From NCBI GenBank assembly GCA_013298185.1, contig JAAFJQ010000003.1:694-64693 (forward strand): DNA of 64,000 nucleotides, given 5' to 3'. The stretch is from Deinococcales bacterium. Its GTDB lineage: Bacteria; Deinococcota; Deinococci; Deinococcales; JAAFIG01. Below the pieces are notes generated by a model. The model had not been told where the DNA came from and searched no databases. It saw only the letters and a program-made list of their open reading frames with translations. Both the position numbers and the translations under genes were made by a program. Positions 1 to 64,000 of the stretch are shown here, in pieces (positions within the stretch are counted from its first letter, which is position 1; each line of letters opens with the position of its first letter).

Positions 1-655
1 GGGGAGTTTTACTGCCGATGATACCAGGGCTAATTTGCGTTTCGGGAAACGAATTATTTATATGTTCGCTAACAGTTTTGATTTGATTGTGGATGGACAA
101 GACATTCGCCTCAATGCCCCTGTGCTGTTCCAAAATAAGCGCTGGCTTGCCCCTCGAGTCCTCCTCGAGGCATTGCAACTCCGAGCGCCTGCGGCAGTTC
201 CAAGTGCCAATCCTGTGCAGAATTTTGAGTTACCGTGGGAAGAACTCGAGATTAAACCGGGTGTGTTTGGATTGCATTTATTTTATACTTCCGAATTTAA
301 CAGCACTAACGATGCCAGCCTGTTTTTGATGCCTTTTGAACAAGTCTCTAAACTCGAGAATAACTTGCAAAGCAATGTTCAAAAAGTCCTAGCGAACCTC
401 AACCTCGAGCAAGCAGGCAAAATTCTGTATTTCTCGGTGGTGCTAGAAGAAGGCAGCAACCCAATCAACCAACTCGAGTTTATCCAAGGCGCAACCCGTT
501 ACAGCGTCGAGAACGGCGCGGGGTTGTACAGTTTTTCAGGTGCATTCCCCAAAGCCAGTTTGGGCGCAATTAAACTACCAACCAGCTTTAATCTGCGCTT
601 ACCCATTCGAGTGGTTTGGGGCGACTCGAGCGCCGATTACGTGTTTGTGCGCTAA
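1..655 (+). CDS. hypothetical protein, 5' end probably outside the window
   Basis: The frame is open from nt 2 to the stop at 653-655. The first possible start inside the window is TTG at 35. No diagnostic motif recognised. Confidence 0.4.
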   Translation, partial: GSFTADDTRANLRFGKRIIYMFANSFDLIVDGQDIRLNAPVLFQNKRWLAPRVLLEALQLRAPAAVPSANPVQNFELPWEELEIKPGVFGLHLFYTSEFNSTNDASLFLMPFEQVSKLENNLQSNVQKVLANLNLEQAGKILYFSVVLEEGSNPINQLEFIQGATRYSVENGAGLYSFSGAFPKASLGAIKLPTSFNLRLPIRVVWGDSSADYVFVR

Positions 656-743
656 GTATCTCCCGCTTTCATTTTAGAATTTTCAAAAAGCGGCAATTCT
701 TTCATTACAGCGTGAGATACGCTGACCTTACTCCTGTTAGTCG

Positions 744-776
744 GAAATGTTTTAGCAAAAAACGCTAAAACATTTC
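744..776. other. perfect 13-bp stem-loop in the gap upstream region
   Basis: GAAATGTTTTAGC (744-756), a 7-nt loop, then GCTAAAACATTTC (764-776). No T-tract follows, so it is not a classical terminator. Confidence 0.4.
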
Positions 777-937
777 AGGGAGGTACTTAGTGTGTCAGAG
801 AAAAGAAAAAAGGCAAAAGAGGAAAGTGAAACTCTGCACTCGTTTCTCGAGTGTTGCGTAAGTGATTGTAAAAGCAAATCATAGGCTTATTGCCATCAGT
901 CCAGACAACCCAATACAAAAGCCTCACAACTCGGGTG

Positions 938-964
938 TTAGAATACCGTGGTTGTGTATTCTAA
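938..964 (+). promoter_or_regulatory. candidate operator upstream of gap
   Basis: Inverted repeat TTAGAATAC-N9-GTATTCTAA ends 24 nt upstream of the gap ATG, just before the GGAGG RBS. Confidence 0.3.
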
Positions 965-988
965 ACTGCTCTTCCCTTTGGAGGTCTT

Positions 989-1987
989 ATGAAAGTTGGT
1001 ATCAACGGATTTGGTCGGATTGGTCGGCAAGTTTTTCGGATTCTTCAAGAAGCAAAAATCGAAGTCGCCGCGATTAACGACTTAACCGATAACGCTGAAT
1101 TGGCGCACTTGCTGAAATACGACAGCAACTACGGACGCTACCCCGGCGTGGTCTCGAGCGACACCGATCACATCATTGTGGATGGTCATAAAACCCGTGT
1201 CTTTGCCGAAAAAGACCCTGCCAAACTGCCTTGGAAGGACTCTGGCGCAGACATTGTGATTGAATCTACGGGGCGTTTCACCAAAGCCGAACTGGCACGG
1301 GCGCACATTGACGGTGGCGGCGCAAAGAAAGTGATTATTTCTGCGCCTGCCAAAAACGAAGACATCACGATTGTCATGGGTGTCAACCACGAAAAATACG
1401 ACCCAGCCACCCATCATATTGTCTCGAATGCCAGTTGCACCACCAACGGTCTTGCTCCCGTCGCCAAAGTGCTGAATGACCTCTACGGCATTGACCGAGG
1501 CATCCTGACCACAGTTCACGCCTACACCGCCAGCCAGAGCTTAGTAGATGGTCCAAGGGGCGACCCCCGCGATGCTCGAGCAGCCGCGCTGAACATTGTG
1601 CCAAGCAGCACAGGCGCAGCCAAAGCTGTGGGCTTGGTGATTCCAGAACTCCAAGGCAAATTCACCGGTATGGCATTCCGCGTGCCAACCCCCACAGTAT
1701 CAGTTGTGGATTTCACTGCACTTTTGAATAAATCTGTAAGTGTCGAAGAAATCAACGCCGCCATGAAAGCTGCGTCCGAAGGACACCTCAAAGGCATCCT
1801 CGAGTACACCGAAGAACCCTTGGTCAGTATTGACCTCAAAGGCAACCCACACTCGAGCATCTTCAGCGCCCTCGAGACACTGGTGCTTGGCGGTAATTTC
1901 ATCAAAGCCGTTGCGTGGTACGACAACGAATGGGGTTACAGCAACCGCGTGGTTGATTTGGTCAAGCACATGGCAAAAAGCCTTTAA
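989..1987 (+). CDS. gap: glyceraldehyde-3-phosphate dehydrogenase
   Basis: 332 aa. [16 protein letters not shown]-binding start, SNASCTTN catalytic-Cys motif and WYDNEWGYS near the C-terminus. GGAGG RBS upstream. Confidence 0.95.
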
Positions 1988-1998
1988 TCGTATATCTC

Positions 1999-62527: not shown

Positions 62528-62720
62528 GGAATTCCTTTACGATTGGTCAACAGATCATCTTAACAGCAAAAACCTCTCGAGTACATGTAAAATTGCAGTC
62601 AGTCAGCCCCTCACCCGACTTCGTCACCCTCTCCCAAAGTACGCGCTTCGCGCAGGGAGAGGGGTTCGGGTTCGCTTTTCGTTCCAGTTATGTAACTCGA
62701 GAAGCCAAGTTCATAATACC

Positions 62721-62760
62721 AGCACCCCTCTTTGAGGGGTCGAGCGAAGCGAGGGGGAGT
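62721..62760. repeat. dispersed 40-nt element
   Basis: AGCACCCCTCTTTGAGGGGTCGAGCGAAGCGAGGGGGAGT is the exact reverse complement of 19830-19869. Confidence 0.9.
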
Positions 62761-62884
62761 ACGTAAGGCATTGCGTTTTTACGATTTGATCCTCGAGAAA
62801 ATTCCTTAAGTTAGTGCGAACGTGGCACAGTGTGCTTTGCCCAACGATTCACGGATTTCATTGATGAACAGTTTCTAAGAAACC

Positions 62885-63265
62885 TTATCCAAGCGCCACC
62901 AGCAATGAGCAGCTGAGCAGCCCAACCACATGTGGTAGCCAAAGTACCCGTTCCCAATAACTTGGTGTGATGATGTGTAGCCCCACACCTAAGCCGCAGT
63001 AGGCAACCACAAACCAAATCAGGACTCGAGCCACGCCCAACAAATCTGGAAAGACCACATTGGCTCGAGTCAGTACCACCAGTGCCAAAAACACCAAGAG
63101 CAGCATCGAGACTGCCACCACACGGCGCATGGCGATGGGCAGCACGCCTTGGTGCGCTCCGCCCATGGTCAGGTGTCCCCATGGCGCTCCGAACAAAAGG
63201 GCTGTTTGAAAAAGTAAAGCTATTCCGATTAAAACTGCAAAGCCGTAAGCTGCTAAAAGATTCAT
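62885..63265 (-). CDS. small hypothetical membrane protein
   Basis: 126 aa from the ATG at 63265, with four hydrophobic segments. Confidence 0.5.
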   Translation of the reverse strand: MNLLAAYGFAVLIGIALLFQTALLFGAPWGHLTMGGAHQGVLPIAMRRVVAVSMLLLVFLALVVLTRANVVFPDLLGVARVLIWFVVAYCGLGVGLHIITPSYWERVLWLPHVVGLLSCSLLVALG

Positions 63266-63318
63266 GGTTTGAATTTTGGCGCAACTTGGCTCAGCAAAAC
63301 AGCCTAAAATCTGAGTGG

Positions 63319-63981
63319 ATGATTCCAGACTTTCCAGAGCCACCATTTCAAATTGTTCTCGAGCCGAGTGCCATTGCTTTGCTGTACAAAGAAAAATACC
63401 GTCAATTGCTCGGGGTTTTCATGCCGCAACCAAGAAGCGTTTCTGAAGCTGCCAAGCTACTGACTCGAGACTTAAAACGCACCTTTAACGATGTGCAAAC
63501 ACTTGTGAAACACGGATTACTCCAAGAAATGCCAAGCGCTGGACGGATGCGTTTCTACCAAGCGGTGGCTCAGAATTACTTTATGCCATTTGCTGCCTCG
63601 AGTTTTACTGGTTATGGCGAATTGCTGCAAGACCAATTGCAAGACCTGCAAAAAGCCATGCTTCACAGCCTCGAGCAGTTTTTAGAACAACGCCACCCAA
63701 GCCTTTGGGGGACACGGTTTTTTCTTGACCCAGATGGAAAAACCCATTTTGCTTTAACCCCCAAAGACAACTGGCAACAACAGTGGTTACTCAGTGAATT
63801 GCTGCAAGCCGATTCACCTGCACTGATGCACTTTTTTGGCAGGTTGCAGCTCTTGCCAAGCCAAGCCAAAGACTTGCAACTCGAGTTGGCGCAACTTTGG
63901 CAACGGTATTATTTTCTATCACTCGAGCCTGATGAGCAAAAAACGACTTTTGGCTTGGGGTTGGGACTCGCCCCCATCTGA
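63319..63981 (+). CDS. hypothetical protein
   Basis: 220 aa from the ATG at 63319. The upstream part of the ORF-track call overlaps the membrane-protein gene on the other strand. Confidence 0.45.
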   Translation: MIPDFPEPPFQIVLEPSAIALLYKEKYRQLLGVFMPQPRSVSEAAKLLTRDLKRTFNDVQTLVKHGLLQEMPSAGRMRFYQAVAQNYFMPFAASSFTGYGELLQDQLQDLQKAMLHSLEQFLEQRHPSLWGTRFFLDPDGKTHFALTPKDNWQQQWLLSELLQADSPALMHFFGRLQLLPSQAKDLQLELAQLWQRYYFLSLEPDEQKTTFGLGLGLAPI

Positions 63982-64000
63982 ATAGAGCATGTTGTACTAA

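Follow-up and report, generated by a model that had tools for sequence, protein, structure and literature searches.

The palindromic hexamer CTCGAG crowds a 64,000-nucleotide stretch of a contig from a Deinococcales bacterium (GenBank assembly GCA_013298185.1, contig JAAFJQ010000003.1, positions 694 to 64,693; hereafter the window). We find that throughout an uncultured clade of the Deinococcota it forms a genuine iterated palindrome of the HIP (highly iterated palindrome) type, and that its excess is a property of the DNA and not of codons or proteins. A preliminary description of the window, made from the letters alone, had proposed a HIP-like hyper-abundant palindrome; the proposal is borne out by the DNA-level excess, by its recurrence in eight related assemblies and by conservation of the sites beyond background.

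Exact counting over the whole window (GC 50.5%) gives 404 copies of CTCGAG, with a mean spacing of 158 nt and a median of 112 nt. The hand counts of the preliminary description (21 copies in nt 1-3000 and 15 in nt 3001-6000) are exact, its estimate of about one site per 170 nt compares with one per 158 nt, and its extrapolation to several hundred sites was right. Its statement that the same density is visible throughout the window holds only approximately, with 13-37 sites per 4 kb and a few gaps of 1-1.6 kb. Base composition predicts 15.9 copies and an order-1 Markov model 9.7, while 100 dinucleotide-preserving shuffles gave 9.6 +/- 2.8 copies with a maximum of 19, none of them near 404. CTCGAG is the commonest hexamer of the window, 2.7 times ahead of the next; ranks two to seven (147 down to 109 copies) are all one-base shifts of it, and the most frequent hexamer unrelated to it has 100 copies.

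The ratio of observed to expected copies (O/E) is 25, 41, 15.6, 3.4 and 1.13 under Markov models of order 0, 1, 2, 3 and 4 respectively. A ratio near 1 under a fourth-order model had been named beforehand as grounds for dismissing the motif, and the value obtained is indeed near 1; the test itself, however, is not valid here. The order-4 expectation is (CTCGA x TCGAG) / TCGA = 441 x 446 / 549 = 358, and CTCGAG itself contributes 92% of the CTCGA, 91% of the TCGAG and 74% of the TCGA counts. Because these pentamers and the tetramer consist mostly of the hexamer, the ratio of 1.13 is no refutation, and we set the maximal-order test aside as uninformative, its model inheriting the signal under test. 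Among the 549 occurrences of NTCGAN (16 hexamers), 404 are CTCGAG; as for the others, ATCGAC and GTCGAT are both absent (0 and 0), and TTCGAC, GTCGAA and ATCGAA occur 18, 13 and 21 times.

The positions flanking CTCGAG are near uniform and carry essentially no information, so that the hexamer by itself is the unit, with no longer repeat around it. A larger repeat unit is ruled out by these flat flanks, the commonest 10-mer having only 12 copies with unrelated flanks, and a dispersed repeat of the REP (repetitive extragenic palindromic) or MITE (miniature inverted-repeat transposable element) type is excluded by the same flanks and by the intragenic position of about 90% of the sites. As CTCGAG is the XhoI cloning site, one might suspect an artefact arising from linker contamination, from a record that is engineered or chimeric, or from some dispersed repeat or miniature mobile element that carries the hexamer. 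This is already refuted, and we give it practically no credence: besides the uninformative flanks, the sites lie in frame within conserved housekeeping genes, and the trait recurs in independent JGI, NCBI and ENA assemblies, which also removes the concern, raised in advance, over an engineered or chimeric record. The 10-mer itself, TTCTCGAGGG, is found 12 times on the plus strand and its reverse complement CCCTCGAGAA only twice. The 14 positions (e.g. 6434, 14866, 16081, 19741, 20654) lie in genes of either orientation, and their flanks are unrelated; this strand asymmetry about a palindromic core is unexplained and could be due to chance.

Frame assignment, based on about 53 gene calls in the window, places 205 sites in frame 0 (CTC-GAG, Leu-Glu), 79 in frame 1 (xCT-CGA-Gxx), 80 in frame 2 (xxC-TCG-AGx) and 40 in non-coding DNA, so that sites occur in every reading frame as originally reported; the density is 6.28 per kb in coding and 6.64 per kb in non-coding sequence. 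One rival explanation would derive the excess from codon usage, codon-pair preference or amino-acid composition, with Leu-Glu being written by preferred CTC and GAG codons, a mild effect of which is common in high-GC genomes. The Leu-Glu frame does hold half of the coding sites, and among 64 unrelated, mostly high-GC control loci codon preference does render a median of 29% (maximum 58%) of Leu-Glu pairs as CTCGAG. Against this, a synonymous-codon shuffle of the 38 long genes, which retains the protein sequences and the motif-inflated codon usage, yields 26.2 +/- 4.7 sites versus 318 observed (12-fold), and a codon-order shuffle 13.8. Outside the Leu-Glu context CTC accounts for 11% of the codons for Leu and GAG for 24% of those for Glu, and codon frequencies outside the motif predict that 2.6% of Leu-Glu pairs should be spelled CTCGAG, whereas 186 of 228 (82%) are. 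Moreover, 159 sites lie in the other two frames and the non-coding ones are equally dense, and the trait spans genomes of 46% to 65% GC. An origin in codon or protein composition is thus already refuted, and its residual likelihood is negligible.

Synonymous opportunities for CTCGAG are nearly saturated; in addition to the Leu-Glu pairs, the motif is used at 65 of 122 (53%) frame-1 opportunities ([SPTA]-Arg-[VADEG]) and at 67 of 146 (46%) frame-2 opportunities (x-Ser-[Ser/Arg]). The effect extends to the proteins. Leu-Glu occurs 229 times in the window versus 97 expected from amino-acid composition (2.35-fold), with other dipeptides near expectation (Glu-Leu 0.85, Leu-Asp 1.08, Ile-Glu 1.06) and the frame-1 and frame-2 peptides enriched 1.26-fold each. 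Since Leu-Glu is 82% CTCGAG and is itself about 2.4-fold enriched, the proteins have been altered by the motif, the surplus amounting to some 130 Leu-Glu pairs per 17,000 codons. An alignment of orthologues had been suggested as a check for convergent sites, and a codon alignment of phosphoglycerate kinase (PGK) from 11 genomes (the window and 10 orthologues) displays them: CTCGAG falls on conserved Leu-Glu positions independently in separate lineages, and its sites coincide with the lineage-specific replacements LD, IE/ME, LN, LQ, AQ and MK/MA to LE.

The closest named relatives of the window PGK are those of a 'Deinococcales bacterium' metagenome-assembled genome (MAG; 72%) and then of Deinococcus species (about 66%). 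Together with the SlpA S-layer protein, these matches identify the source as a MAG of the Deinococcota. To our knowledge no cultured member of the Deinococcota has a GC content of 46-54%, which marks the lineage of the window as uncultured. CTCGAG is the top hexamer in eight independent assemblies of this phylum, namely the window (NCBI MAG contig; GC 50%, 6.3 sites per kb), L001 (JGI metagenome; 46%, 4.6), L002 (JGI metagenome; 61%, 3.9), L085 (NCBI GCA_965188805.1; 54%, 6.0), L206 (JGI, 1.4-Mb contig; 64%, 5.0), L207 (JGI, 1.1-Mb contig; 65%, 6.5), L208 (NCBI GCA_031414595.1; 46%, 5.1) and L010 (JADMIM010000011.1, 'Thermaceae bacterium MAG015'; 59%, 2.7). In the seven loci of the window's clade, that is all of these except L010, CTCGAG is the spelling of 49-81% of Leu-Glu pairs (1-14% predicted from codon usage), and the enrichment of Leu-Glu is 2.2-2.75-fold as opposed to about 1.0 in the 64 controls; in L010 the corresponding values are 64% (13% predicted) and 1.46-fold.

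A neighbour-joining tree of GAPDH and PGK, which as a tree of two proteins serves only as a guide, unites the window with L001, L085 with L208 and L206 with L207 in one clade (99% bootstrap), with L010 as sister to these six CTCGAG-rich members (91%); the trait-positive L002 pairs at 99% with the long-diverged L084. In L084 the motif is neutral (6 copies versus 8.5 expected). Five Deinococcus loci (L004-L008, about 83 kb together) contain a single copy against 30.6 expected (P = 1.6e-12), which amounts to avoidance, while Thermus composti and a Deinococcaceae MAG show a mild enrichment (O/E 2.2-2.5) of the kind usual at high GC. Across about 70 loci of unrelated phyla, taken from the matches listed in a PGK-alignment scan of genome contigs, O/E ranges from 0 to 2.9. 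A search for 'ghost' sites in L084 relative to L002 gave nothing usable, as this pair is too diverged (synonymous codon identity 45%). As the trait is independent of GC over the range of 46-65%, is bound to a clade and is neutral or avoided in relatives, the pattern points to a factor within the phylum that reads exactly CTCGAG and can be both gained and lost. L010, although labelled Thermaceae, groups with the CTCGAG-rich Deinococcota and not with Thermus (91%), and its family assignment may need revisiting.

The abundance of CTCGAG stands out further against the fate of other palindromes in the window. The 4-bp palindromes GGCC (3 observed versus 294 expected), CCGG (53 versus 220) and CTAG (33 versus 105) are depleted, and of the 49 palindromes of 6 bp that could be tested, 26 reach no more than one tenth of the expected number, among them TGCGCA (0/38), GCATGC (0/34), TGGCCA (0/26), CTGCAG (0/24), GTGCAC (0/23), TTCGAA (0/22) and GAGCTC (0/13). 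The last of these is CTCGAG turned inside out, and it has 0 copies despite 83 Glu-Leu pairs in the window. Just 85 of 3406 non-palindromic hexamers are equally depleted, mostly ones containing GGCC, GDGCHC or CCWGG. Pooled, all palindromes except CTCGAG stand at 0.31 of expectation versus 0.7-1.0 in unrelated controls and 0.2-0.4 in two Deinococcus loci, and L001, L208 and some Deinococcus loci share the depletion. The depletion hints that many restriction systems have been at work over a long time. Several lineages of the phylum, whether or not they have the CTCGAG trait, thus avoid palindromes strongly, and in the window's clade CTCGAG has escaped to the opposite extreme, just as the preliminary description had contended. 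Type II restriction-modification systems such as XhoI and PaeR7I recognise CTCGAG, and while the window avoids most other 6-bp palindromes as well as GGCC, and Deinococcus avoids CTCGAG itself, the sign of restriction-site avoidance is reversed for this one hexamer in the window's clade, where it is the commonest of all.

To examine maintenance we compared one pair of genomes, L206 and L207, which are syntenic over 14 genes and have a synonymous codon identity of 62%. Between them 61 CTCGAG sites can be aligned, and 40 of these (66%) are conserved, as compared with 30% for all hexamers and a mean of 35% for 218 control hexamers (P ~1e-6). Likewise, the codons CTC, GAG and TCG are conserved in 73-78% of cases inside CTCGAG and in 50-56% outside it. 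On sequence comparison of this one genome pair, the motif is actively maintained beyond background; an equivalent conservation result was taken by Xu, Lawrence and Durand (2018; PMC5861425) as evidence of the maintenance of HIP1.

HIP1 (GCGATCGC) and the alternative HIPs of cyanobacteria (PMC4390886; PMC5861425) are in fact the closest counterparts of CTCGAG, being likewise short, GC-rich, perfect palindromes over-represented by one to two orders of magnitude. Whereas HIPs are recognised by a 15-300-fold genome-wide over-representation, that of CTCGAG is 25-41-fold in the window. Both motifs occupy all coding frames as well as non-coding DNA, both are conserved beyond background at the level of sites and inner codons, in both cases highly expressed genes appear depleted, and in both only some lineages carry the motif. 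Unlike HIP1, which is a cyanobacterial octamer with a GATC core, CTCGAG is a hexamer with a TCGA core from the Deinococcota; its density is about six times that of typical HIP1 (one per 158 nt versus about one per 1000 nt), and it is distinguished by a clear effect on the proteome, Leu-Glu being doubled, and by sister lineages that avoid the same site. The early impression of a motif different from HIP1 and denser than it was therefore accurate. HIP1 is further characterised by a quasi-periodic long-range spacing along the chromosome; over the 64 kb of the window CTCGAG has a 3-nt periodicity only. Judged from its sequence pattern, CTCGAG appears to behave as a HIP while differing in sequence, length, phylum, density and protein effect.

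The reading we favour, with a probability of roughly 45%, is that CTCGAG is a methylated self-tag that biases transformation or recombination. A site-specific protein would read CTCGAG as a 'self' tag during DNA transactions, probably by way of a cognate orphan DNA methyltransferase and a reader of the modified site. Natural transformation or homologous recombination would then prefer tagged DNA or alleles, as with methylated HIP1, and this bias would act as a molecular drive in which site-creating mutations are preferentially fixed and site-destroying ones removed. Such a drive might nearly saturate the synonymous opportunities and then spill over into amino-acid replacements. We infer the methylation, the link to transformation or recombination and the drive itself by analogy with HIP1: methylated HIP1 raises transformation more than 100-fold in cyanobacteria (bioRxiv 10.1101/2024.09.10.611283), HIP1 abundance correlates with DNA-uptake genes (bioRxiv 10.64898/2026.06.24.733823), and every alternative HIP is reported to occur together with a methyltransferase of matching specificity (Elhai 2015, PMC4390886). 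We also count in its favour that the window encodes components of the competence machinery, a ComEA-type receptor and a PilT/PilB-type ATPase (Table 1). At the density of the window a genome of a few Mb would, by extrapolation, hold roughly 20,000 sites, and as single sites would be too weakly selected to force amino-acid changes, a molecular drive is more plausible than selection on each site.

Several observations weigh against the self-tag. Deinococcus and Thermus are naturally competent yet lack the motif, so that competence alone does not predict it; a 6-bp tag offers little specificity per site; and non-coding DNA is no denser in sites than coding DNA, though a drive limited by protein constraint predicts that it should be. 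Furthermore, neither the 64-kb window nor the relative loci of about 20 kb yielded a gene for a methyltransferase, nuclease or reader, and contigs of tailed phages carry CTCGAG at 4-5 per kb, which is not expected of virulent phages under a pure uptake drive. If these phages infect trait-positive hosts, a drive by DNA uptake alone becomes less likely.

The DNA uptake sequences (DUS) of Neisseria and the uptake signal sequences (USS) of Pasteurellaceae (Bakkali 2007, PMC1939737) are also short motifs present at high copy in coding and non-coding DNA of naturally competent bacteria; they too distort peptides, and their spread is thought to reflect molecular drive rather than per-site selection. 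They are, however, 9-12 nt long and non-palindromic, have an extended flanking consensus and occur at about one per kb, in contrast to a 6-bp palindrome with flat flanks at about six per kb. DUS and USS are often arranged as inverted pairs that form terminator hairpins, which is not so for CTCGAG (13 of 72 close pairs, no enrichment), and in contrast to the DUS/USS pattern the competent relatives Deinococcus and Thermus have no CTCGAG motif. Another 6-bp palindromic site, RAATTY of Campylobacter jejuni, is methylated by CtsM, and this methylation marks self DNA for natural transformation. RAATTY is degenerate and frequent simply because the C. jejuni genome is AT-rich, and we know of no report of a hyper-accumulation or proteome effect comparable to that of CTCGAG for it.

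The pattern of substitutions bears on a second account, site-directed biased mismatch repair with no role in transformation. Here a CTCGAG methyltransferase would act together with a nicking or mismatch endonuclease, and heteroduplexes would be repaired toward the intact (methylated) strand, so that gains are fixed and losses reverted within the cell; this is Elhai's model for HIP1 and follows the logic of Dcm and Vsr in E. coli. It would explain the above-background conservation of sites, the better-conserved codons inside the motif, the near-saturation in all frames and the equal coding and non-coding densities, it would account for the motif in phage DNA replicating in such cells, and the co-occurrence of alternative HIPs with site-matching methyltransferases (Elhai 2015) speaks for it as well. 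The Dcm/Vsr system (CCWGG) is also a precedent for a methyltransferase and a site-specific repair nuclease biasing the frequency of a palindrome, but the effect of Vsr is small, T:G-specific and depletes CTWGG, whereas the CTCGAG excess is 25-40-fold and its deamination neighbour is not depleted. We see no Dcm/Vsr-type footprint in the window: the deamination neighbours CTTGAG/CTCAAG (O/E 1.09) and TTCGAG/CTCGAA (1.33) behave much as in trait-negative relatives. What is depleted is the transversion neighbour CTGGAG/CTCCAG (0.5, versus 1.86 in trait-negative relatives; CTGGAG is how relatives usually spell Leu-Glu) and CACGAG/CTCGTG (0.39).

Similarly, among the 15 single-step differences between L206 and L207 (CTCGAA 5, CTGGAG 5, CTTGAG 1) a C<->T change at position 3 accounts for only one, and the differences are whichever change is synonymous, transversions included. 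This independence of mutation type suggests that what is favoured is the finished hexamer, by drive or selection on the site and not through one mutational or repair channel. A repair system would have to accept any mismatch type, and we know of no repair enzyme that does so at such a site; nor did the window and the relative loci yield a methyltransferase or endonuclease gene. We consider biased repair unlikely on balance, though the most serious competitor of the methylated self-tag.

A third possibility is that each CTCGAG is selected as a binding site of an abundant dimeric DNA-binding protein, with a role for instance in nucleoid organisation, chromosome segregation or a Chi-like protection of self DNA from a host nuclease. 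A perfect 6-bp palindrome suits a homodimer, one site per 158 bp is within the range of nucleoid-protein spacing, and the sites are spaced slightly more evenly than random, with 109 intervals of 50-100 nt versus 80 expected and fewer intervals above 300 nt than expected; a role in self-protection would also give phages a reason to copy the motif. Yet analysis of site spacing over the 64-kb window revealed no exclusion zone and no periodicity beyond the 3-nt coding signal, highly expressed genes are depleted and not enriched in sites, and some 20,000 sites of tiny value each are hard to reconcile with amino-acid replacements unless a drive operates too. We know of no candidate dimeric protein for CTCGAG, and regard this alternative as improbable, distinctly more so than biased repair.

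The window contains ordinary chromosomal genes, including those for GAPDH, PGK, glycoside hydrolases, ABC transporters, lipoate synthesis and an S-layer protein of the SlpA type that has an SLH domain. When about 50 open reading frames (ORFs) of the window were scanned with Pfam, NCBIfam and PADLOC, no methyltransferase, restriction enzyme, Vsr or other defence gene was recognised, in agreement with the initial inspection of the sequence; about 10 of these ORFs have no annotation. When the ORFs of 29 CTCGAG-rich loci were screened for the catalytic motifs (D/N/S)PP(Y/F/W) and PCQ...ENV, one truncated weak candidate alone was recovered, in the viral contig L156. The ParB-like protein of the phage contig L169 lacks a methyltransferase domain.

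Viral contigs in IMG/VR were scanned for three CTCGAG within about 70 nt, a criterion that favours the upper tail of densities; in about 8 of the 120 loci recovered CTCGAG is the top hexamer, at 4.4-5.9 per kb. The contigs in which it is the commonest hexamer (4-6 per kb) include L134, L175, L203, L102, L190, L169 and L189. Three of them are bona fide tailed phages, L134 (portal, E = 5e-101, and tape-measure protein), L175 (portal and head morphogenesis proteins) and L203 (tail protein), with 62-79% of Leu-Glu spelled CTCGAG versus 20-39% predicted by codon usage; in L189 (GC 70%) the figures are 86% and 3%. Several of the phage contigs are high in GC, where codon usage alone gives 30-58% CTCGAG among Leu-Glu, and as high-GC controls reach 29-58%, the evidence from such contigs is weakened. 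Portal comparison pointed to no host, as identity to the portals of phages of Ralstonia, Komagataeibacter and Arthrobacter is no more than 21-43%; in Arthrobacter phage Galaxy CTCGAG occurs at 2.3 per kb and is not the top hexamer. In three other high-GC viral contigs (L121, L142 and L156) the SacI site GAGCTC is the commonest hexamer with CTCGAG also frequent, which may represent another iterated palindrome or a tandem arrangement of GAGCTC and CTCGAG.

The full-text literature was searched for an over-representation of CTCGAG in whatever genome, and no such report was recovered. Nor is CTCGAG mentioned in the survey of alternative HIPs by Elhai (PMC4390886), and the only methylome match is an m5C methyltransferase of Halorubrum, in a genome with just 560 sites. 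The hyper-abundance of CTCGAG is thus apparently a second, denser and previously unreported counterpart of HIP1. We put at about even odds the broader proposition that a sequence-directed conversion or self-recognition system drove a bare 6-bp palindrome near saturation, rewriting proteins in the process, and that this was an independent second origin of a HIP-type motif outside the cyanobacteria. The role of HIP1 has been open for some 30 years and was studied in one phylum until now; given a second case that is independent of the first and stronger, hyper-iterated palindromes would no longer be a cyanobacterial oddity but something that a DNA-level process brings about repeatedly. The three states seen in related lineages (hyper-abundant, neutral and avoided) constitute a natural experiment, and because sister lineages differ in state, the responsible gene could be identified by comparative genomics of complete genomes. 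A DNA-level force that has reshaped a proteome has consequences for codon-usage models, dN/dS estimates and MAG annotation. In practical terms, CTCGAG offers a very sharp k-mer signature by which this lineage can be binned and phages can possibly be assigned to it, and XhoI-type enzymes would cut such DNA into very small fragments unless it is methylated.

Table 1. Genes and structural elements of the window mentioned in the text
Feature	Position	Strand	Remarks
Phosphoglycerate kinase (PGK) gene	2042..3223	+	11 CTCGAG sites; used for codon-level comparison
Hairpin just 3' of the PGK gene	3313..3334		8-bp perfect stem, motif in both arms; extended fold -18.6 kcal/mol
ORF, 33% GC in 50%-GC context	8476..9063	+	weak SUKH/SMI1-KNR4 (immunity-protein) match; 1 CTCGAG
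Intragenic inverted repeat	10186..10222		11-bp stem from two CTCGAG sites; -16.2 kcal/mol
Solute-binding protein gene	16545..17804	+	1 site, 0.8/kb; within a 1411-nt gap
Intergenic hairpin	17855..17885		11-bp stem, CTCGAG in each arm; -19.1 kcal/mol, z = -5.7
PilT/PilB-type T2SSE ATPase	27871-28995	-	component of the natural-competence/type IV pilus machinery
Intergenic hairpin between divergent genes	29964..29985		8-bp perfect stem (CTCGAGAA / TTCTCGAG); -13.6 kcal/mol
slpA S-layer gene	46725..51122	-	9 sites, 2.0/kb; holds gaps of 1598 nt and 1188 nt
ComEA-type DNA receptor	57579-58142	-	SLBB and HHH_3 domains

Some CTCGAG sites take part in inverted repeats (Table 1). Two intergenic stems had been pointed out from the start, at 17859-17880 and 29964-29985, and both are real hairpins. 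The first lies between the genes for a solute-binding protein and a permease, both on the plus strand, and is preceded by an A-run, corresponding to a T-run that follows it on the minus strand; owing to this A-run it resembles an intrinsic terminator of the minus strand, or else a bidirectional or attenuating element within the ABC-transporter operon. As an explanation of the motif, a hairpin or terminator function was rejected: the stems are real but a small minority, since the close pairs of sites are not enriched and only 13 of 72 extend past the automatic 6-bp stem.

A few genes of the window are poor in sites. In slpA the inflation of Leu-Glu is absent as well, with 7 such pairs in 1466 aa, and terC is also site-poor, as is the gene of the solute-binding protein (Table 1). 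The GC-poor ORF with the weak SUKH/SMI1-KNR4 match has one Leu-Glu pair, which is not spelled CTCGAG, and this gene is probably a recent acquisition in which the motif has yet to accumulate. Anecdotally, these site-poor genes fit a combination of constraint in highly expressed or membrane proteins and accumulation of the motif with time of residence.

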